Both the position numbers and the translations under genes were made by a program. A stretch of 64,000 nucleotides of DNA, from contig LNDU01000029.1 of assembly GCA_001464735.1 (NCBI GenBank), positions 5,573-69,572 on the forward strand. Direction: 5' to 3'. The notes under the pieces were generated by a model that did not search any database, was not told where the DNA came from, and was given only the letters and a program-made list of their open reading frames with translations. This document shows, in pieces, positions 9,718 through 27,362 of this stretch. The DNA comes from Nitrospira sp. Ga0074138 (GTDB taxonomy: Bacteria; Nitrospirota; Nitrospiria; Nitrospirales; Nitrospiraceae). Each line of letters begins with the position of its first letter. Position 1 is the stretch's first letter.

Positions 9718-10945
9718 TCACCTGCCTTTTCGCTTACCGTTTGATTCGTTCCGTGATGTCTTCAGTACTCGATCCAGGCCACGAAACTGCTTCTTCTCCT
9801 GCTCATCTTCCTCACGGATCTTCCGATCGCGTTTTCGGCGGGTGAGGAGTTCGCCACCCAGTACCGGCAACGGATCAAAATGCCTCCAAGCCGGCATCGA
9901 AACGAGGAAACTCGCAACCAGAGCGCCCGCGCAGATTCCAGGCCACAAATCCAGCGGATAAGGCCATCCCCGAGAATGAGGCGACTTGCCCGATGAGCTG
10001 AGCTTTATGTTCCTACTCCTGCACGCCGCGCTCAAGATCCTCGGCCAACCTGGTCAATCGTTCGACAAGTTTGTGACCCACAGCCAGTACCTTTTTCACC
10101 GGAAGCGAAAATGGTTCCGCCGGTCGCGCTGGAGGCTCCTGGATCCCGACGGTGGGCTGCTCTACCCTGGCAAAGGTGCGATTCGGGGTCATAGTTCTCG
10201 GGAGCGGATCGTTCGTTGCGCCTACCACGGACGCTTCTTTCACCGGCACCCCCAGGGCTATCAGAACTGGAGGCTGCTGTATTGGAGGCGGAACGATACC
10301 ACCGCTGCCTCCAGACCTAGAGCCCGAACCTGAACCTGTGCCTCCAGACCCTCCTGTCCCGCCACCACCTCCGCCGCCACCACTGCCTCCACCTCCACCA
10401 CCGGGCGGTGGGATAAACGGGGCAACCGTGAATGTCCCTTCGCCGATCAGGTGGATCGCGTCGATGCCCGTCCGCCCGACGAGTACCTCCGCCATCTGCT
10501 GCACGCCGTCGCGGGCAGGATCGAGGATGATCACTTCGACGTTGGGGCTGATGCCATCGAGCAGTTGTTGGTAGTCGCGCACGCTGGGAGAGAGAAACAC
10601 GATTTCCTGACGGGCCGCTGACGTATCGTAGGCCGCCAGCGCATCGAATAAGGCTTGGTCGTTAGAGTTGAACTGTGGCTCACCTGTGGGTGCGGCAGCG
10701 GGTGGTGTGTCAGATGATGTCGCGTCATCGGCTGAGAGAGATGCTTCGGCTTGACTCTGGGCGAGTGGCTCGGTGGCAACGGTACCGAGCGTCGCCACAC
10801 CCGCCCCATCGAACATGATCCGTGGTTCGAGCGCGAACCAGGAGGCGCTGTATGTGGGAAGGGGCGGACTCCCGTATACAGAAGTCGGCCGCCGTCCGCA
10901 GGCAGGCTTCACCTCGCCCTTCTTGCGTCTCCGTAGTATTTTCAT
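9718..10945 (-). pseudogene. Collapsed giant LEPR-XLL/DUF4347 secreted adhesin-type gene
   Basis: ALEPRIMFDG motif and a DUF4347-like start (EIVFLSPSVRDYQQLL...IDAIHLIGEG) fused directly to a Gly/Pro linker. In-frame TAG at 10013-10015, then EHKAQLIGQVASFSGMALSAGFVAW, then a frameshift near 9930 into ALVASFLVSMPAWRHFDPLPVL. Confidence 0.75.
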
Positions 10946-16880: not shown

Positions 16881-16907
16881 TCGTCAGAGGCTCAGCGCGA
16901 ACGGATG
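16881..16907 (+). repeat. REP-like element copy at the avd breakpoint
   Basis: AGGCTCAGCGCGAACGGATG matches AGGCTCAGCACGAGCGGATG of the copy at 20484-20510. Confidence 0.6.
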
Positions 16908-17053
16908 TTGTTCGGCATGCGCGACTCGATCCGCTCTCCCAGCACAAACCGATGAGATCGTGGAAACTTGCCCAAGTGGTTGATGAGCCAGCGCAGCACA
17001 TCGTAGGCCTTGGTCACGGCCATAGGAAGGGTTCCGGCAGATTCCTCGGTCAT
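16892..17053 (-). pseudogene. avd: Truncated DGR accessory variability determinant (Avd-like four-helix bundle), N-terminal 46 aa only
   Basis: Manual translation (53 aa, below the ORF-track cutoff): MTEESAGTLPMAVTKAYDVLRWLINHLGKFPRSHRFVLGERIESRM|PNNIRSR*. KxYD-WL-KFPR-xRF-LGxRIE is the Avd N-terminal signature. The gene sits directly after an FGE/CLec gene. Confidence 0.8.
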
Positions 17054-17110: not shown

Positions 17111-17138
17111 CCGGAGAAAAGGAAACAGGGTCAAAGCG
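17111..17138 (-). repeat. 28-bp element 6 bp downstream of an FGE/CLec stop codon (copy 1)
   Basis: CCGGAGAAAAGGAAACAGGGTCAAAGCG, 27/28 identical to 25359-25386, with the same distance to the stop. Confidence 0.85.
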
Positions 17139-17144
17139 TATAGA

Positions 17145-20100
17145 CTATTTTATGTCCTGGGCAAGGCGAAAACCGATGGTATTGTCTCGATCGTCAGCCA
17201 GGCCAGGCTTGTCGTAGCGCCGGGACCAGACGTTGAACTCCTTCCTCTCCCTTCTGTCATCCCAGGAACCACCCCGGATCACCCGCAAACCTTTCTTTTT
17301 GTCATACCAGTCCGCACACCATTCCCAGACATTCCCGACCATGTCATAGCACCCGTAGGGACTGACCCCAGTAGCATAATCGGTTACCGGTGTCGTATGG
17401 GAAACGCGCGCATGGGCACTATTGCATTTCCCCTTGTCGAACTCGTCTCCCCAAGGATATTCGCGTCCATCCTCCTGGCCACGAGCAGCCTTTTCCCACT
17501 CCTGCTCGGTCGGCAGGCGTTTCCCAGCCCATTTTGCATATGCCTCTGCTTCAAAGTAGCTGACTCCAACAACGGGATGATCGGCCTTGTTCCATTGAGG
17601 ATCATCCCAGTATTGAGGATCTGTGACGTTATTTGTTGTTTTCCACTTCCACCCATCATCTGACCAGTATTGCTGATCTTGATAACCACCGGCCGAGGTC
17701 ATGGTCGATCGTCTCGCGGGTTTTCCGGTCGCCATACAAGAACGGTCCCTTCGGCACTTTCACCATCTCAAAGGGAGGTTCCTGTCTGGGTGTATTTTGG
17801 CTCCGAAAGCTTGACTGACGCCCAGTTGATTCCCCTCGCGATGATTCCTCTTCTGCCGCCCTCGCGGCTTTCCCCTCTATCACCCGTGCAGGCTTCTCCT
17901 CCGGCACTATTCCATACTTCTCTATGAACCCCGACAAGGGTCGCTCTTCCGCTATTGGAGAAGGCCTTTCTTTCCTATCCTCAACCATAGGCTCGACAGT
18001 CTTAGATACTGCCGTAGGCTGATCGACTGGATTCCACATCCCTTTTTACAGAAATCCTATTAGCCGATCCATGTCTCGATGAAAATCGGGATCAGGGCGC
18101 ATGACGAGGCCATTCCGGTAAGACAACTCTTGCAGACTGGCCAGGAGCCGATCCACCAGCGGGATCGCGGCCCCGCTCACCAGCACCGGAATGATTGGAA
18201 TGTCCCGTTTGAGGGCCGATTCGACCTCAATGCGGACAAAATCCCCTGGGTCCTCGAGTCTCGACTTGCCCTTACTGCCGCGTTTTTTGATCCAATCCCG
18301 CCCGATGACTACCAGGAACACCTAGCACTTACTCACCTGCGTATCGAGATACTTCCGAAAATCAACACCAAACGGAATCGAATCGACATCCTTAAAGACG
18401 GCCCCTGCCCCAAACTCTTGACGGAGTCGGTCGTAGATCCGCCCCGTGACATCGGCACTATCCTCGCGACGATAGGAAATGAAGATCCTGCTCATACTCC
18501 TAGGCAAGTTCGAACGCACGGCGCCACGCATCACGCCAGACGGTTTCGCTTCCAGTCGCTCGGACTCTGATTCCACCTCAGCGGCTCGAGAGAGCGTCGC
18601 ACGGTTTACCGTGATGAGGTATGTCTTATTACTACCATTCGAGGCAATCACGATGATTTCTATTTCGGTACTCGATCCGGCAGGGGCTAGAGTTATGGAA
18701 CGGGCTTGCCCCGCACTAGTTCCCTGTCCATTGATCGTCATACTGGAATTGATATCTTGAAGTGTTGGAGTCACGGTGACGCTTGTAACGTTGCTACCAA
18801 CGTTCACCGTATAGGAAGTCCTGCTGGCACTAAAGGAAGGCGAGAGCCTCCCAGATGAGACGGACAAACTCTGCAAGTTATGGTTCCCGCCAAGTGCTGC
18901 CCGGGACACGTTCACCACGTAGGTCTTTTGACTGCCCTCGGATGCGGTCACCCAGATCGTCACACAGGTGGTTGTCCCAGGCCCGCTCAGTTGAATGGTT
19001 GCTTGGCCAGTGGCGCCGCCCACCCCAGCCGATACATCACCCGATATCACGGCATTCGGATCGGCCTTGGTTGCCGCTACTGTGACGCTGGTGACGGCAC
19101 TGCCGACGTTTGCCATATATTGTGTTGTGCTTGCAGTAAACACCGGGCTGATGGAACCAGGAGGCGTCACCGTCAATGCTGACAGGTTGTTATTCTCGCT
19201 AACGACAGCACGAGAGACGTTTACTGTGTAGGTCTTCTGAGTGCCATTGGGTGCGGTCACCTCAATATTAATTAAGGCATTTGACCCTGCTCCGTTCAAC
19301 GCTATGGTTCGGGGTTGTCCGGAGGTGGAGGCCTGCCCATTCACGGTGATCGTTGCGTTGGGATCCTGCCGCGTAGGCGTGACCGTGGCACTGGTCACGG
19401 TGCTTGCCACATCCACGGTATAGCTCAGTGTGTTCGCACTAAAGGCAGGAGTCAGAGTACCTGACGACACGGTTAACGCTGACAAGTTGTTGTTGCCTGA
19501 CGGGACTGCTCGGTTTACCGTGATGCGGTAGGTTTTCGAACTTCCGTTCGGAGGGGTGACAGTAATCACCGCGAGTGTGGTTGTCCCTGGTCCGTTGAGT
19601 GGAAGAGTCGCTTGGCCGGTTGCTGTTCCTGACCCAGCTGTCGCATTCCCCGACAGCACGGCATTCGAATCAGCCTTGGTTGCCGAGACATTCACGCTGG
19701 TCACCTCACTCGCCACCTTCACTGTGTAGTCCGCGGTGCTCGCAGCAAAGCTTGGAACCAAGGTGCCCGGCGACAGGGTCAACGCCGACAAGTTATTGTT
19801 CCCACTAATAAGGACAGCTTGAACCGCACCCTGCAGCGGTTTGCTCTCAGGTTCGGACGTCGGCTTCGCTGACGATGTTGGAGTGGCCTGGCTCTGCGTC
19901 ACGGGAACGCCGATGACCCCGGCCAGATCGTCAATAAATTGGTCAAAGCCGGAATGCTCCTGATCCGGTTGCCAGTCCATCAAGTGCGCGGCCTGTAGAT
20001 GCTCAAACTCCAGTGGGATCTCAACCACGTCCAGCAGCATCACGGGGAATAAGATGTTTCGCCGCAGGCCACTCCGCGATTCATTCTTCACCCAGGTACT

Positions 20101-20298
20101 TTTGACCGAGGTCTTAGTCCCCACCACAACAACGGATCTCGCGGCTTTCAGAGCTTCATGAATGACGTCATCGAAAGACTTGCCAGCAGGAATCCGCCGA
20201 TCCCACCAGACCGACCACCCCTTCCGTTCCAAGGCTCGCGCCAGGGCTTGGACGCGGCCCTTATCTTCGCTGGAATAACTGATGAAGATGTCACTCAT
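17145..20298 (-). pseudogene. TIR - 4x cadherin-like beta-sandwich - TIR - FGE-sulfatase/C-lectin protein with several lesions
   Basis: MSDIFISYSSED TIR; four NNNLSAL...TYxxxVxRA repeats; second TIR (RIFISYRREDS) with an in-frame TAG at 18322-18324; stop/frameshift near 18046; deletion-frameshift near 17695 (IDHD|SAGGYQD); RLPTEQEWEKAARG, GNVWEW and GFRLAQD at the end. Confidence 0.8.
18595..19800 (-). repeat. Four tandem ~100-aa cadherin-like beta-sandwich repeats
   Basis: Repeat heads NNNLSALTLSPG, NNNLSALTVSSG, NNNLSALTVTPPG and NHNLQSLSVSSG. Boundaries are approximate. Confidence 0.8.
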
Positions 20299-20364
20299 GG
20301 CTGGTTCTAAAACGATACGGCTTCATCTGAACGACCCACAACCGCTTGTCACAGAGGCCCGTTT

Positions 20365-20507
20365 GTGGTGAGCCAGTCGAACCATGAAGGGACTTCCGGA
20401 ACGCTACTCAGGACCAGGAAGGGCCCAAGTGTAACGATCTCACGTAAAGCTGTCTAGCAGCTGTTTTGAGGAGTGAGGCTGTGCTTCGACAGGCTCAGCA
20501 CGAGCGG
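20365..20507. repeat. Inverted pair of TTCGACAGGCTCA-type REP-like elements
   Basis: GTGGTGAGCCAGTCGAACC (20365-20383) and CTTCGACAGGCTCAGCACGAGCGG (20484-20507). Confidence 0.65.
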
Positions 20508-20511
20508 ATGG

Positions 20512-22362
20512 TTACAAATACGGATTCTCTGGAATCGCCAGCGTGAAGTATTTTCCCCGCTCTTCGTACAAGACCCGCTGTGCTGTGAGGTCGTTGAGGA
20601 TGGGCAAGAGGATTTCATCACCGCACTCAGTTCGCCCCGCCGCTGCAGATCGGATCTGCTCCACGCTCTTTGCCGACTCATTGCAAATTTCGATGACCAG
20701 CACCGCTAAGCCTTCATACCGCCGACGAGTCGGAGCCGTTGGATTCCGGCCATCGTAGACGGTCACATAGTTCGGTGCCTTCGAGTAATACAGAAACGGC
20801 CGATCCCCTGACTTATGCATCCGTTGCCAGCCCTCGATTGCAGCAACCAGCTCTTGATACAGGTGAGGATCGACTGGCCAATTGTCGAGTTCATACTCAA
20901 AATCGTAGGCGATCTTCTTCAGATCGACCTGCCGTGCGTCGTAGACATACTCATAGGCCATCCCCGGTCCCGTAATCCGGATGCCGTACTCGTGCGGCCT
21001 AGTGAAGTAGGGGCTGAAGCGCTGCAGCCAGAACTTGCCGGTCGCTTCGGGCGGCTGCAGGTGCAGCAGGGAGGGAATCAGGTCGAGCTGACGCTGATAG
21101 TCCTCATTGGTCTCGCCTGGAAATCCCAGCAAAATATTCCATGATACCATCACGTGATAGTAGAGGCTCCACTTGAGGCAGATGATGTTCTGCATCGGCG
21201 TGACGCCCTTGTCCATGGCACGCAGCTGATTGAGGCTCAAACTTTCCAGGCCCGGCTGCATGCACTTCACCCCGCCGGCGGCCAAGGTCTTGATCTGGCG
21301 TTTCTGCAGATTGCTCTTGGTTTCGATAAAGACATCCAAGTCGCAGTGATCCTCCGCCAACTTGCCGAAGAGATTGTCGATATAGGCCATGTCGATGATG
21401 TTATCGACGAGGCGAAACCGGACAGCATCGTAGCGCTGTGAGAGGTCGGCCATTTCTTGTAACACCTGCCCAGGCGCCTTGGCTCGGAACTTCATGCTCT
21501 GGGCATTGAGTCCACAAAAAGTACAGTGATGTTTCTCGCCCCACCAACAGCCACGAGAACCCTCATACAATAGGATTCGATCGAGACCTTGCGCCGTCTG
21601 CCCGAGTTCAGTAAGTAACGCATAGTAGTCGTCATAATCGGGAGGGCCGGTCTTTGCGAAATCGGAGAAGAGTGATTCATTCCGTGTGAGCTTGATCTTG
21701 TCGCCCTGACGGTACGTCACCCCATTCGGATAGTCCACTGTTTTACTGGCCAGAACCTGGCGAACGAACGGCAAGAAACTTTCTTCTCCCTCACCGACCA
21801 CCACGTGATCGATGAAGGGAAACGCCCGGAAGTACTCCAGCCCCATCTCGCCGTCGAAGTTGGCTCCACCGAAGACAATCGTCACATCTGGGTACAAGTC
21901 CTTGATGAGCTTGGCCATGGTCAGGCTCGCGACGTTCTGATCGAACGTCGAGGTAAACCCGACCAACTTATACTGTCCCCAATTGATGGCGGTGAGGGCC
22001 CAAGTGAGAAATTGCGGCGCGATGCGGGTCGCCATCTCTTCGAAGTAGCCAATCGGTTTGCTGCACTCTTGGGACAGCTGTTCAAAGACCGGCTTGAATA
22101 TGCGTGGGTACTCCGCGCGTTTCGGATTGTCTTGAAACAGGAGGAAGGAGAACAGCCACTCGCCGAAGAGCGCGCGTTTCTCACAAATGCTTTCGTGCAA
22201 TTCGACGCCGATCAGGTGGGCAAACCGGACGTTCATATGATGACAATCAACAGGAATGCCGTTGGATTTCAGGAGCGCAGAGAGCGTGCCGAGCTGAATC
22301 GAGGGATACTTGGCGTAGCTGAACGGCATGTTGACGAGCGCAACTCTCGCTTCATCGCTCAT
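20512..22362 (-). CDS. B12-binding radical SAM protein, RiPP maturation C-methyltransferase type
   Basis: VALVNMPF...PSIQLGTL N-terminus, GFTSTFDQN, GGANFDG, SRGCWWGEKHHCTFCG (CxxxxxxxCxxC variant) and QPGLESL. Confidence 0.85.
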   Translation of the reverse strand: MSDEARVALVNMPFSYAKYPSIQLGTLSALLKSNGIPVDCHHMNVRFAHLIGVELHESICEKRALFGEWLFSFLLFQDNPKRAEYPRIFKPVFEQLSQECSKPIGYFEEMATRIAPQFLTWALTAINWGQYKLVGFTSTFDQNVASLTMAKLIKDLYPDVTIVFGGANFDGEMGLEYFRAFPFIDHVVVGEGEESFLPFVRQVLASKTVDYPNGVTYRQGDKIKLTRNESLFSDFAKTGPPDYDDYYALLTELGQTAQGLDRILLYEGSRGCWWGEKHHCTFCGLNAQSMKFRAKAPGQVLQEMADLSQRYDAVRFRLVDNIIDMAYIDNLFGKLAEDHCDLDVFIETKSNLQKRQIKTLAAGGVKCMQPGLESLSLNQLRAMDKGVTPMQNIICLKWSLYYHVMVSWNILLGFPGETNEDYQRQLDLIPSLLHLQPPEATGKFWLQRFSPYFTRPHEYGIRITGPGMAYEYVYDARQVDLKKIAYDFEYELDNWPVDPHLYQELVAAIEGWQRMHKSGDRPFLYYSKAPNYVTVYDGRNPTAPTRRRYEGLAVLVIEICNESAKSVEQIRSAAAGRTECGDEILLPILNDLTAQRVLYEERGKYFTLAIPENPYL

Positions 22363-22404
22363 CTAACGCCTCTTAAGTTACGTCCATCAAATTTCGTTAC
22401 GCTG

Positions 22405-22480
22405 CCGTTCGCCCTAAGCTAGTCGAAGGGCGTGCACCTTCAAGGAATTCGTTCTTGGTTCGACAGGCTCACCACGAACG
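22405..22480. repeat. Inverted pair of REP-like elements
   Basis: CCGTTCGCCCTAAGCTAGTCGAAGGG (22405-22430) and GGTTCGACAGGCTCACCACGAACG (22457-22480). Confidence 0.7.
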
Positions 22481-22498
22481 AACCTCTGAGACTCTATG

Positions 22499-22843
22499 CT
22501 AAGCGGCCCGAAAGGGCTCAAATTCACGGTCCGCCTTGGCCGCCAGATAAAAGTCGCTCTCGGTCAGGCCGTTGATCTTGTGCGTCCAGATCTCGACCTT
22601 TACCTTGCCCCAAGCCAGATACAGATCGGGATGATGGCCTTCGGCCTCGGCCACCGCACCGACCTTGTTCACAAAAGCCAGCGGCTGAGCAAAGTCCTTG
22701 AAGGTGTACAGCCGTTCGAGATGCCCCTGTCCGTTGAGTGCCCACCCCCGGCCCAGTTCTTTGAGCAACGCCTGTGCGCGATCATTCGGCACCGGCGGCA
22801 CCCCGCCACGACAGGGAATACATTTATTGTCGGCCAAGCTCAT
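22499..22843 (-). CDS. Pterin-4-alpha-carbinolamine dehydratase
   Basis: AEAEGHHPDL...WTHKINGLTESDFYLAAKAD motif. Confidence 0.92.
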   Translation of the reverse strand: MSLADNKCIPCRGGVPPVPNDRAQALLKELGRGWALNGQGHLERLYTFKDFAQPLAFVNKVGAVAEAEGHHPDLYLAWGKVKVEIWTHKINGLTESDFYLAAKADREFEPFRAA

Positions 22844-22926
22844 AACATCCTCCTTGCGAGCAAAACGAATGAATCATTCTAAAGGGGCGTTGAGTTGAAG
22901 GGCAAGGTGGTCTCTTCGGCGAGCCC

Positions 22927-22979
22927 GTCCTGAGCCAATCGAAGGACTCAGGATAGATTTATCGACGGGCTCAGGGCGA
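22927..22979. repeat. Degenerate inverted pair of REP-like elements
   Basis: GTCCTGAGCCAATCGAAGGA and TCGACGGGCTCAGGGCGA. Confidence 0.5.
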
Positions 22980-22985
22980 TACCAT

Positions 22986-24281
22986 TCAACGTTCATTCGG
23001 AACATCCTGCACGCAGCGAAAACCTCGGCCGGTTGCGCCTTCGTCCGCCAGGGCAAACATGCGCACCTGATAATCGAGGTCGCCGACAGCATCATGAATG
23101 CCGAGAGCCTGAAGACTTCCACGAATCACCTTCCGGGTCTGGTCCTTCGGCGGCGTGGGGCTCCATCGAGCCTCTTGGTACGTGGTGGCCGTCCACTCGT
23201 ACACCTGGTCGTTCAAGATCCGGCCCTGCGCGTCATGCGCCGCTTTTTCCCACTCATCTTCCGTCGGTAGCCGCTTGCGAGCCCATCGGCAGTAGGCGAC
23301 GGCATCATGCCACGTGACGTCCTGTACTGGTCCATTGGGATCGAGCGAAGTAGATTGCTCCATCAGGTCGGGAGGAGGCGTCACGCCACTGGATTCAACA
23401 AATCGGCGGTAGCGCGCGTTCGTGACCAAGGTTTTTTCGACATACAGATCGTCCGCCAGATGCAGGGATCGCGCGGTGCCTTGAACCTCTTCCGCCCGTC
23501 CCCCGATAAAAACCTCCACCATCTTGGTCGGGATGCGTCCGGACCGAATCAGCACCATAGGCATTCCATCCACACCGATTTTCTCCTGCGGCACCATCGA
23601 GTCGCTGGCACGTGGCTCGATATGCCAGCCATTCAACGCCACCGCAAGGATCGATGCCGGCACCGCATAACCCAACCGTCCTCTGGTGTCACTCACGACA
23701 CCGATCACCTGCCCGTTCAGTAACAGTGGTCCACCGGAATGGCCTTCCTCAACCAGAGCCTGAAACGCGAGGGTCGGCCCGTTCATCCCACTAAGACTCC
23801 CCGTGGAGACAGTCCAGGGTGGTAACGTCCGTGGAAAGCCTATGAAGGTGAGCGCCTCTCCACCAACTACCTTTGTTGTCAGATCCAGCGGTAACGCCAC
23901 TACACCGTCTGGAATCGGCCCAGCCACACGCAGGGTGGCGAGCCCCTGTGGATCTCCGCCTTCAATCCCGACCACTTGAGCTACGAACGGCTGCTGGAGG
24001 TTGAGGATAAACGTCACGGTGGGTTTGGGATCTCCTTCCACCACATGCGCCGCCGTGACGATGTAGGCGGCGTCCTTGTCAACACGTACGACAAATCCCG
24101 TCCCAACCTTGGATTGCTGCCCTTCAGCCTGAGCGGTGATCTTCACCACCCCGCGTTTCAGATCGCCACTGCCCTGTGACAAGAGAAGATGTGGAAACAG
24201 GAGGGTGGACAGTAGGTAGAAAGCTACGGAGTGGAAGGCAATTCTTACGACAAGTATGCCGCTGACAGACTTTTTCAACAT
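22986..24281 (-). CDS. Exported trypsin-like serine protease fused to a shortened FGE/C-lectin domain
   Basis: N-terminal hydrophobic segment; GTGF, TAAHVV and GHSGGP trypsin motifs; RLPTEDEWEKAA and GFRCVQD. Confidence 0.8.
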   Translation of the reverse strand: MLKKSVSGILVVRIAFHSVAFYLLSTLLFPHLLLSQGSGDLKRGVVKITAQAEGQQSKVGTGFVVRVDKDAAYIVTAAHVVEGDPKPTVTFILNLQQPFVAQVVGIEGGDPQGLATLRVAGPIPDGVVALPLDLTTKVVGGEALTFIGFPRTLPPWTVSTGSLSGMNGPTLAFQALVEEGHSGGPLLLNGQVIGVVSDTRGRLGYAVPASILAVALNGWHIEPRASDSMVPQEKIGVDGMPMVLIRSGRIPTKMVEVFIGGRAEEVQGTARSLHLADDLYVEKTLVTNARYRRFVESSGVTPPPDLMEQSTSLDPNGPVQDVTWHDAVAYCRWARKRLPTEDEWEKAAHDAQGRILNDQVYEWTATTYQEARWSPTPPKDQTRKVIRGSLQALGIHDAVGDLDYQVRMFALADEGATGRGFRCVQDVPNER

Positions 24282-24287
24282 CCTGTG

Positions 24288-25343
24288 CTATTGCCGTTCC
24301 AGCGCAAAAGACCCGGCATTGCCATTATTGCAGGTCACCGTACCCTGGATAGTTTTTCCACCGTCGCCGACTTCTGAGGTAAAATCGCAAGCCACACCCT
24401 GGAAGGTCTGCGACGCGAGGCGTCCGGCGAACACATTGCCCTGCGTACGGCCTTGCATGACGCCGGCATCGCCATGATTGTCGGCATAGGTGCCGGTGAC
24501 CTGGTCGCCGTTTTGTTGATAGACCGTCTGGATGATGGATGTGCCTCCCAAGAGGGTCATGGAAAGACCCTGGTACGTTCCGGATACCAGACCTCTTGCC
24601 GTCGGCTGGACCACGACCGGTTCCGGTTCTTCTTCACTTGATCGTGGCGGAAGCTGCCTCGCTTCCTCCAAGAGCCGTACACCCCATCCCTCTAACGCAA
24701 AACGCGCCACGACGGCAGGCACCGCGGTGTTAAACTTTGCGCCCACCTGCGTCACAATGCCGACGACGCTGCCTTGGAACAGCACTGGCCCTCCCGAATT
24801 GCCTTCGTCGGCTGTACCGGAAAAGGAGAGCGCGCTCCCGCGCCGACCAGAAAGGGTGCCCGTCGTCACGGTCCACATGGAACCTTCCGCGCGTGGGAAG
24901 CCGATCAAGGTGATGGGTTCACCGCCGCTGACAGATGCCGCCTGGTCGAGGGGCAGGGCCACAAGATCGGAGGGAATCTTGCCTTCGACCAAGAGCGCAG
25001 CCAATCCAGCCGGGTTTCCTCCTTCTAGCCCCAGCACGCGAGCGCGATACGAGCGGTGCGGCGCTACGTAGAAGAACACGTTGGGATGCTGGTCGCCTTC
25101 GATGACATGTGAAGCCGTGACGATATAGACATGGTCTTCATCCAACTTCACCACCACTCCCGAGCCGACGCGATTTTTGCCATCCACCTGCGCGGTAATT
25201 TTCACGACCCCTTTTTTCACGCGGACCATGTCATTGGCCCAGAGCGCAGAGGGAAAGGCCACCGCCAGCAGAAGCAGCATGCACAAGGCCCAACTACAGC
25301 ACGCGTGAAAGGTTTCGAACGTTGACGATGCGCGATTCAGCAT
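24288..25343 (-). CDS. Exported trypsin-like serine protease with an unknown C-terminal beta domain
   Basis: Signal peptide ending ALWA; GSG, TASHVI and GNSGGP motifs; paralogous to the N-terminus of the downstream gene. Confidence 0.8.
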   Translation of the reverse strand: MLNRASSTFETFHACCSWALCMLLLLAVAFPSALWANDMVRVKKGVVKITAQVDGKNRVGSGVVVKLDEDHVYIVTASHVIEGDQHPNVFFYVAPHRSYRARVLGLEGGNPAGLAALLVEGKIPSDLVALPLDQAASVSGGEPITLIGFPRAEGSMWTVTTGTLSGRRGSALSFSGTADEGNSGGPVLFQGSVVGIVTQVGAKFNTAVPAVVARFALEGWGVRLLEEARQLPPRSSEEEPEPVVVQPTARGLVSGTYQGLSMTLLGGTSIIQTVYQQNGDQVTGTYADNHGDAGVMQGRTQGNVFAGRLASQTFQGVACDFTSEVGDGGKTIQGTVTCNNGNAGSFALERQ

Positions 25344-25358
25344 GGTGACTTTGCAGAT

Positions 25359-25386
25359 CCGGAGAAAAGGAAACAGCGTCAAAGCG
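25359..25386 (-). repeat. 28-bp element 6 bp downstream of an FGE/CLec stop codon (copy 2)
   Basis: CCGGAGAAAAGGAAACAGCGTCAAAGCG; see copy 1. Confidence 0.85.
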
Positions 25387-25392
25387 AAAAGG

Positions 25393-25803
25393 TTATTTCG
25401 GAACGTCCTGGGCGCAACGGAACCCGATAGCGGCGCCCCAGATCAACGGTGTGTCCCTGCCACGGTATGCAGACCGCAACTCTCTCGGTCCATTGAACCA
25501 GGACCCACCGCGGACGACACGATATTCCCCAGCCGAGGGTCCTTTCGGATTGCGCACCGAGCTCTTGCCATAATAGTTGCTGTCATACCAGTCCGCCACC
25601 CATTCCCACACATTGCCGGCCATATTGTAAGCACCGTAGGGACTTCTCCCGTTCTCAAGTAATCCAAAGTTGATCAGCACCCCATAGTCCATTGAATCGC
25701 GGCACCCAAAATTCGCCAATGTTTTACTGGGTTCTGCATTGCCCCAGGGATAGAGCCGCTGGTCGATTCCTCGCGCTGCCTTCTCCCACTCGGCCTCTGC
25801 GAA
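25393..25803 (-). pseudogene. C-terminal half of an FGE-sulfatase/C-lectin domain with no N-terminal half
   Basis: Begins abruptly at AEAEWEKAARG just after the TIR-TM gene stop; contains SPYGAYNMAGNVWEWVADWY and RGGSW...GFRCAQDVPK. Confidence 0.75.
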
Positions 25804-25817
25804 CACGGCGCGCACCT

Positions 25818-27362
25818 TCAACGCTTGAACTCCTTCCAAAGCCGATAGGCCCCAAGGCTGGTCGTGAACACCGCGGAGACAATCGCTACAAACACCGCGA
25901 GCCGCGCATTATGCCACAAGGCATCCAACGCGGTCAGGCTGTGGAGAATCGGAATCTCGCCTCTCTTCGTACGGACCTGTTTGACCAGCCCATAGCCGAC
26001 CACATTCATGCCTCCACCGTCAGACCGCAATGTGACGCGCTCAATCTCGAATTTGTCCAGCCGCTCTAGGCCAATGGCCTCACCCTCTTTGAGTGGCACG
26101 ATGCCGAGGTGCGGATAATTCGGGAAGCTGATCGTCCCCTGTCCGGTCAGCGCGCTGACCCGCTCGCCGGATGGATCTTGCTTGGTCAGATCCATCGTGA
26201 CCACGGGAATGCCGCTGAAGAACGACGTTGACTGGCCTGACACAAAGGTGGGCGAGAGGATCAGACCACCCGATAGGGCGGTGATTGCGATCCAGGACGC
26301 CTGCTCCGGTAATGTGATGCGATAAGTCAGCTCGTCTTGGTTCCCGAAGGGCGATGCGATGTCGCGCAGCTCCACCTGATCCGCGATCAACTTGAAGGGC
26401 TTATGAATCGACAGTGTGAGCGTGTCCTGACCCGTGACCTGAAGCGTAACTCCCTCTTTCTTTCCGCCATATATCTCTCGCGCTGCCAGCGTCACGTGTG
26501 TGCCTGGCGCCACCGCCATTGGGTCGAGATGGATGGTCTCCGATTCAGCAGCATTCAGTCCCTCGACTGTCACTCTCGGATGCCGGGTTTGATCCTTAGC
26601 CCCCAATGTGACCTTGGCGCCATCGACCTTCAAACGCTTCCAAGCTGAGGGTGGAAAGTCATCCGTCTTGACCCGATACTGCAATGGATTAGCGACCTCA
26701 ATTGTGACCGGTTCAAAGGCAAGGGTGGAGAACTTCTCGATGGCAACCGACTGCACATCGAACCCACTCAACATCGTCTTGCCTTGTTCACTCGCCGCGA
26801 CTTCGAATTCCATACGCTCTGTGGTCAGCTCCACCTGGACCCTTGCCGGAATCGACCATAGCATGAGCCCAATTGCGACGACCGCCGCCAGAATGGCTGG
26901 GGTGCTGACAAGCCAGATCGGAGGAACTCTTTTCCACCAAGGCTTCGGCCCGAACTCAATTCGCTTCGGCGGACTCTTGACGAGTCGTTCAATATCTTTG
27001 AGCAGTTGGACAAACCCTGCATGCTCGACGCCTGCGTCCCAATCCACCAACGATTGAAAGGTCCGCTGGCTGAAGCCCAACGGGATCTCGCTCTCGTTGA
27101 TCTTAATGGGGAGATACTTGTCTTGCTTCTTGGCTTCAGACGCTTCCGCTTGGACCCACTCAGACTCGACGGATTGTTCAGACCACACGACAATCGCACA
27201 TTTGGCGGTGCCAAGTTCTTGTCGGATCACCTGGTTGAACGATCCACCGGTCGGAATGTTGCGATCCCACCAGACAGACCAGCCGTGCGACTCTAACGTC
27301 TTCGCGAATCGTTCGACCCAGGGGCGATCTTTGCTGGAATAGCTGATGAAGATGTCGCTCAT
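25818..27362 (-). CDS. TIR-domain membrane protein (TIR - TM - large extracytoplasmic domain - TM)
   Basis: MSDIFISYSSKD...WWD TIR_2 domain; hydrophobic helices near aa 145-172 and aa 490-507. Confidence 0.75.
   Translation of the reverse strand: MSDIFISYSSKDRPWVERFAKTLESHGWSVWWDRNIPTGGSFNQVIRQELGTAKCAIVVWSEQSVESEWVQAEASEAKKQDKYLPIKINESEIPLGFSQRTFQSLVDWDAGVEHAGFVQLLKDIERLVKSPPKRIEFGPKPWWKRVPPIWLVSTPAILAAVVAIGLMLWSIPARVQVELTTERMEFEVAASEQGKTMLSGFDVQSVAIEKFSTLAFEPVTIEVANPLQYRVKTDDFPPSAWKRLKVDGAKVTLGAKDQTRHPRVTVEGLNAAESETIHLDPMAVAPGTHVTLAAREIYGGKKEGVTLQVTGQDTLTLSIHKPFKLIADQVELRDIASPFGNQDELTYRITLPEQASWIAITALSGGLILSPTFVSGQSTSFFSGIPVVTMDLTKQDPSGERVSALTGQGTISFPNYPHLGIVPLKEGEAIGLERLDKFEIERVTLRSDGGGMNVVGYGLVKQVRTKRGEIPILHSLTALDALWHNARLAVFVAIVSAVFTTSLGAYRLWKEFKR

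Follow-up and report, generated by a model that had tools for sequence, protein, structure and literature searches.

In the diversity-generating retroelement (DGR) of BPP-1, targeting requires the initiation of mutagenic homing (IMH) sequence and up to 35 bp downstream of it, including a hairpin (Guo et al. 2011, PMC3240598). The hairpin is the only known flank signal, and hairpins are present in only 34% of DGRs, about one-third; where IMH and IMH* are the same, recognition must extend downstream (PMC5758913). Because hairpins are confined to this minority, another discriminator is expected. How DGR cDNA is integrated is still unresolved, with a lagging-strand template being favored (PMC12875486). 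Here we consider a 64,000-nucleotide (nt) stretch of DNA from Nitrospira sp. Ga0074138 (the window, to which positions refer unless another locus is named), where one noncoding 28-nt sequence stands behind two genes of the C-lectin fold. Our analysis suggests that this 28-mer belongs to a Nitrospira DGR lineage, as a flank on the target side, and that it acts in target recognition and homing; judging from sequence patterns, we give this reading a probability of about 0.6.

Multi-target C-lectin DGRs have been described in Trichodesmium (PMC4143802), other cyanobacteria (PMC7517822), and multicellular bacteria (PMC10907252). As in those systems, the targets considered here are FGE/C-lectin genes with TIR- or trypsin-like conflict-system domains fused or adjacent, several remote targets occur per genome, and the Nitrospira reverse transcriptase (RT) is 45–59% identical to those of clade members. 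Unlike those systems, the genome under study has targets only, with neither an RT nor a template repeat (TR). A further difference concerns cis features for remote targets, which the cyanobacterial survey merely postulates (PMC7517822); the searched text of these papers describes no repeat array. A tract that is confined to variable regions (VRs), and is so across phyla, would be a candidate for the missing discriminator. It is directly testable in the E. coli reconstitutions now available, and it could aid both the prediction of remote targets and the design of programmable DGR mutagenesis.

A shared 28-mer behind two C-lectin genes

Both copies of the 28-mer lie on the minus strand, copy 1 at 17111–17138 (CGCTTTGACCCTGTTTCCTTTTCTCCGG) and copy 2 at 25359–25386 (CGCTTTGACGCTGTTTCCTTTTCTCCGG). 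They agree at 27 of 28 positions, with the consensus CGCTTTGAC(C/G)CTGTTTCCTTTTCTCCGG, and each is separated by exactly 6 nt from the stop codon of the preceding open reading frame (ORF), a TAG at 17145–17147 and a TAA at 25393–25395. Both ORFs encode FGE-sulfatase proteins of the C-lectin fold, which end in ...GFRLAQDIK* and ...GFRCAQDVPK*. An earlier reading of the window, made from its letters without database searches (the sequence-only reading), had described this arrangement, and its coordinates and identity count hold. It had also stated that the FGE genes at 22986 and 31968 lack the element; the same is true of six more, so that eight FGE-type ends besides the two marked ones are without the 28-mer. 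Seven of the genome's 10 FGE-type ends carry neither TR-like sequence nor the motif. A search of the whole assembly (4.1 Mb, 94.7% complete), which the sequence-only reading had proposed as a check, returned exactly two copies, both behind C-lectin ends, and 100 shuffles of the sequence yielded no match.

One marked end as a former variable region

By an adenine test, the end at 25393 (locus 2) qualifies as a DGR VR. A 114-nt segment of this end (VR2, 25404–25517, minus strand) runs colinear with TRs from related DGRs of Nitrospira. Compared with the TRs of two of these genomes (G280 and G009), the 25393 end is changed at 19 of 33 TR-adenine positions vs. 8 of 80 other positions (p = 3e-7). 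Its NNC codons (TTC, TAC, GGC, GAC, ATC, GGC, and GCC) stand opposite AAC, AAA, and GAT codons of related Nitrospira TRs, much as the sequence-only reading had anticipated in supposing AAC at these places in the template. The last ∼21 nt of VR2 (25405–25425, GGGTTCCGTTGCGCCCAGGAC) represent the IMH-like, GC-rich end common to those TRs. Here GGGTTCCGTTGCGCCCAGGAC is followed by the motif; in the TRs of G009, G280, and G270, the same IMH is followed by a different flank. The carrier gene is a C-lectin/FGE fragment (25393–25839, minus strand, 148 aa) that spans Pfam profile positions 115–254 only. Relative to the syntenic gene of G290, ∼1.06 kb is missing; the lost part takes in the trypsin domain and, of the FGE domain, its N-terminal half. 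Locus 2 once served as a remote target.

The end at 17145 (locus 1) behaves differently. We distinguish two types of Nitrospira DGR, type 1 (the 28-mer lineage) and type 2 (RT 52% identical). Against the TRs of either type, the 17145 end shows no adenine bias, and 15–17 gap positions are needed for alignment. The indels and the missing bias led us to reject it as a VR of a type-1 or type-2 TR. Thus the earlier claim that both ends are VR-like stands for the 25393 end but fails for the 17145 end, and only one of the two marked ends is demonstrably a VR by this test.

The motif at the DGR targets of other Nitrospira

About 20 Nitrospira genomes carry the motif 9 nt past the stop codon of DGR-type VRs. 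Its 23-nt core is present in nine other Nitrospira assemblies, each time behind an end of the form ...GFRCAQD..stop, and three of these copies are followed by avd. Within the 301-genome family sample used to search close relatives, all matches with zero to two mismatches lie behind such ends; matches with three mismatches are partly unrelated. This placement, together with the two copies here, both at C-lectin ends, led us to reject a generic repetitive extragenic palindrome (REP) or miniature inverted-repeat transposable element. A known RNA family was also rejected, as there is no Rfam match.

Gene order in G009 is target, motif, avd, RT (with an IGNQTSQ motif), and TR, and the homology between TR and VR stops at GTGCCCA(A/G)GAC. 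The motif therefore lies outside the TR; nor is it part of IMH*, since TR homology ends ∼20 nt earlier. In G280, whose DGR is intact, one VR is adjacent and at least four more are remote. The motif follows the adjacent and three remote VRs, the fifth VR has a diverged copy, and the sequence flanking the TR bears no relation to it. In four of these VRs, 16–22 of 17–39 mismatches fall at TR adenines. The proposal of an IMH-adjacent mark on multiple DGR targets is thus supported, as the motif is specific to target ends, absent from the TR, and present several times per genome. When 36 distinct flanks were aligned with MAFFT, the motif proved as conserved as the coding IMH, and conservation stopped abruptly after CTCC(G). 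The type-2 Nitrospira DGR has its own array of CTTTG units, which shares CTTTGACCCT with the type-1 tract.

The motif lies ∼90 nt upstream of avd in the cassettes and contains TTGACC, so it might be imagined to head the avd-RT-TR operon, as a promoter (with TTGAC as the −35 element) or a 5′ leader, and to have been copied passively to remote targets. We find this hardly credible. A scan of the motif sites found no sigma-70-like promoter, and there is no −10 element at 16–18 nt. The motif is equally conserved at remote VRs that precede unrelated genes or REP elements, and arrays elsewhere in the clade (described below) lack TTGAC.

Two further observations concern sequences near the motif and the TR. 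Several remote VRs (L066, L067, L070, and L011) have a second conserved block, GGCCGCGAGATCAA, 20–25 nt past the motif, and locus 1 of the window has a degenerate TGTGTGATCAACGAG at the corresponding place. On the template side, ∼90 nt 3′ of the TR (GCCTGCCCGATGGC.GGA...GTGCCGTTGGGCGTCCAG) are conserved in three type-1 cassettes (L021, L077, and L078); this segment is probably a structured spacer RNA that primes cDNA synthesis.

Constraint on the 28-mer and probable past rewriting in trans

Among the orthologues of three RT-less genomes, G000 (the genome under study), G290, and G187, the 28-mer is identical at 26–27 of 28 positions, and the spacer has diverged. Identity at third codon positions of the adjacent trypsin gene is 0.48–0.49 in the pairs that include G000 and 0.74 between G290 and G187. 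Because the 28-mer has been kept while nearby synonymous sites are saturated, its conservation exceeds the neutral expectation and indicates purifying selection. A functionless element could have been carried along passively when a C-lectin 3′ end was duplicated long ago together with its flank. Indeed, the two carrier genes are paralogues (44% amino acid identity), and all carriers fall in one C-lectin subfamily. However, the two C-lectin ends cannot be aligned at the DNA level except over their last ∼25 nt, whereas the noncoding 28-mer is 96% (27/28) identical. Neither the constraint among orthologues nor the sharp end of conservation at the 3′ edge of the motif in 36 loci suits a passenger, and we regard this origin as very improbable.

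Orthologous VRs of RT-less relatives differ mostly at TR adenines (for example, at 25 of 33 adenine vs. 6 of 80 other positions; p = 7e-13). In G000 and G290, the Avd junction appears to be one and the same, inherited by both, and with it the dead cassette. Taken together, these two observations imply that locus 2 would have been rewritten later by an RT and TR located elsewhere, and they point to service of the targets in trans in the lineage's past, after the local cassette had died. The sequence-only reading had raised service in trans as a possibility; the comparison of orthologous VRs favors it for the past only. Among 20 motif-bearing genomes, three have a type-1 RT, and a type-2 RT is present in one of those and in one further genome; none of 20 motif-less controls has an RT of either type. 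In another genome without a DGR RT, a TR-like copy (L091, G090:C2:917213-917318) keeps its adenines (7 of 33 changed, no adenine bias) and may be an orphan template repeat.

Repeat arrays in the VR flanks of the wider clade

A profile built from four Nitrospira RTs retrieved 80 relatives (45–59% identical) from Planctomycetota, Acidobacteriota, Armatimonadota, Bacteroidota, cyanobacteria, Gammaproteobacteria, and others. When TRs and VRs were paired automatically, 74 VR flanks and 61 TR flanks were obtained. Over the first 40 nt, the pyrimidine fraction is 0.71 in VR flanks vs. 0.47 in TR flanks (p = 4e-21). Autocorrelation at lag 7–8 reaches 0.44–0.46 in VR flanks, compared with 0.25–0.26 in TR flanks and 0.30 in shuffled VR flanks. 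Flanks were scored as periodic if their self-similarity at period 7–9 exceeded the 95th percentile of composition-matched shuffles. Such short-unit (∼8-nt) periodicity was found in 56/74 VR flanks and 2/60 TR flanks. The array is followed by a perfect GC-rich hairpin, mostly with a GNA loop, in 54 of the 74 VR flanks (median start, +47 nt). Thus the usual flank order in the clade is IMH, array, hairpin. The sequence of the unit tracks the RT clade, not the host. No account of repeat arrays or pyrimidine-rich VR flanks was found in the DGR papers searched.

Similar flanks occur in phage relatives (RT ∼40% identical), where ATCTG-type units, under motif definitions fixed after the data had been inspected, are present in 17/28 VR flanks and 0/26 TR flanks. 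Phage DGRs from IMG/VR (L175–L199) have three to four tandem (N)AATCTG units in their VR flanks, followed by a GC hairpin, and not in their TR flanks. The hairpin in the VR flanks of phage relatives often has a GCGATAGC center.

The Nitrospira 28-mer appears to be a local, nearly frozen form of the clade's array. In Nitrospira, the array would be the main conserved flank, the hairpin having been lost or reduced to a vestige. A repeat scan reported no inverted repeat at either 28-mer copy, and thus none of the BPP-1 type, which is GC-rich, has arms of 7–10 bp and a 4-nt GRNA loop, and stands 4–34 bp from the VR. DNA folding is no better than that of shuffles (z = +0.26 and +1.18), and no stem is predicted. 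A hairpin or cruciform is thus rejected, in agreement with the earlier description of the element as pyrimidine-rich rather than the usual hairpin. H-DNA was rejected by inspection only, the tract being no mirror repeat.

It is useful to set this tract beside the flank of BPP-1 (Guo et al. 2011, PMC3240598). Both lie within ∼35 nt 3′ of the VR and at the VR rather than the TR, both follow a GC-rich, IMH-like end common to the TR, and both mark every target of the element. Unlike the BPP-1 flank, the Nitrospira sequence has no inverted repeat or GRNA loop; its short direct units form a pyrimidine tract that is strand-asymmetric. Moreover, in most relatives the array precedes the hairpin instead of replacing it, and the array is known here from sequence alone.

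Proposed role of the tract and its main rival

Copy 1 together with the preceding 6 nt forms four degenerate T-run/CC units immediately 3′ of the stop codon. The tract can accordingly be described as a pyrimidine-rich sense-strand array of about four degenerate 7–9-nt units, CCTTTaCgC / TTTGACCC / TGTTTCC / TTTTCTCC, which would begin at the stop codon, 18–24 nt past the end of TR–VR homology. We suggest that this array acts in cis during retrohoming, distinguishing the recipient VR from the donor TR, and that it promotes integration of the mutagenized cDNA at the adjoining IMH. It may serve as a track that is read on the exposed sense strand by an Avd-RT-RNA complex or by a host replication factor.

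The main rival holds that the tract is an expression element of the target gene's 3′ end, such as a C-rich, G-poor, rut-like site for Rho loading, or an insulator or 3′ untranslated region (UTR) element that would keep transcription from running on into avd-RT-TR or the following gene, with no direct role in integration. The tract opens directly at the stop codon, and on the transcribed sense strand it is rich in pyrimidines. An element of this kind would naturally be missing from the TR, which is no gene end; its conservation in genomes without an RT would cause no difficulty, and the hairpin and T-run that follow the tract in many clade members would fit as well. However, the tract is missing from seven non-DGR ends of FGE paralogues in this genome, and the near-invariance of its sequence is atypical of rut sites. 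The scan of the motif sites found no intrinsic terminator, and at locus 2 the ATG of the next gene, which looks co-transcribed, comes 14 nt after the 28-mer, a poor fit to termination. Finally, the unit sequence varies with the RT clade, not with the host. We therefore consider an expression element unlikely.

Several points weigh against a role in homing. The link between array and homing is drawn from patterns in sequence, and a position at gene ends together with absence from the TR would also be expected of a 3′-UTR or termination element. The Nitrospira 28-mer is only weakly periodic, scoring 0.58 where the threshold is 0.57, and the ATCTG-type motif of the phage counts was chosen after inspection. 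Flank complementarity to 2.5 kb of the avd-RT-TR transcript is no better than in shuffles in three genomes, so that RNA-guided docking is rejected and no reader is identified by this route. The motif also persists in 12 or more genomes that have no DGR RT at all, one of them a genome in a single contig. To account for this, RTs must have been lost recently and on independent occasions, or the motif must have a function for which no resident RT is required.

A broader version of the homing role would make the arrays a general address label of DGR targets, with a unit sequence specific to the RT clade (CCTTT in cellular C-lectin DGRs, ATCTG in phages) and acting on the single-stranded sense strand as the lagging-strand template. 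Primase might then start preferentially at the arrays, or the arrays might provide Avd-RT with a track on which to dock, and cDNA annealed at the VR would be sealed at the IMH into the nascent strand. Labeled targets would stay under selection in RT-less Nitrospira because they would be rewritten now and then by a cassette that circulates in the population. We hold this wider proposal to be quite doubtful.

A dead DGR and its relics

In the genome under study, the DGR is dead. The assembly contains no DGR-type RT; its only RT, 510 aa long, is of the group II intron type and has 26% identity with the Nitrospira DGR RT. No TR was found genome-wide by blastn, and the adenine pattern of VR2 is seen solely against the TRs of other genomes. 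Of the parts of a complete DGR, avd persists only as a 53-codon stump. The possibility of an RT or TR residing at another place in the genome was likewise rejected; a Pfam 23S_rRNA_IVP match on contig C39 belongs to an unrelated, stand-alone gene. We also rejected a phage-borne copy of the type-1 cassette, as the best IMG/VR RT is merely 45% identical. Both marked gene ends are relics, and their carrier genes look damaged. Given this state of the RT, TR, avd, and carriers, the earlier suggestion that the targets are possibly still served in trans finds no support for the present genome. The two conflict-system genes are instead fossil DGR targets. Like other decayed or orphan DGR loci, they show a truncated accessory gene, missing RT and TR, and frozen VR sequence; unlike them, the flank is constrained across RT-less species, and VRs were diversified after loss of the local cassette.

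Locus 1 retains the clearest remnant of the cassette. A truncated avd (16892–17053, minus strand; 53 codons plus stop; bAvd E = 0.004) starts ∼57 nt past copy 1, and residues 1–48 of its product share 83% identity with the G009 Avd, which comes from an intact DGR (E = 3e-22). Beyond the point where the ORF breaks off lies a pair of nucleotidyltransferase and HEPN genes. The Avd stump marks locus 1 as a former cassette-adjacent target from which the RT and TR were deleted. Its C-lectin/FGE ORF (17145–17735, minus strand, 196 aa, profile positions 54–254) belongs to a gene split by a frameshift, with the N-terminal part in another frame (17656–18039). Not until ∼30 nt before the stop codon does homology to the G290 orthologue return, which argues that the C-lectin body at locus 1 was probably replaced, with the flank and the Avd stump left in place. 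The frameshift region spans 17656–17735, and the upstream gene, which encodes a TIR-4x cadherin-like-TIR protein, has an in-frame TAG at 18322–18324, inside the second TIR domain. The TAG and the frameshift could be real pseudogenization or assembly errors of a metagenome-assembled genome.

Avd stumps are not unique to this window. They occur in at least five RT-less Nitrospira genomes (the window, L073 at 10624-10749, L049, L048, and L010), and all break within codons ∼37–48. The sequences downstream of these stumps differ, except in the G000/G290 pair. This pattern suggests a recurrent hotspot of deletion or insertion inside avd. A second DGR relic lies outside the window, at C55:150044-150900, where a pyrimidine-rich flank of the CTTTG type comes after a C-lectin end (...GFRLAQDIEP*); this relic also has an Avd stump of ∼37 codons resembling the type-2 Nitrospira DGR. 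Within the window, a radical-SAM gene between the two loci is bracketed by 54-nt inverted-repeat arms (20348–20401 and 22439–22492) that are 78% complementary and REP-like.

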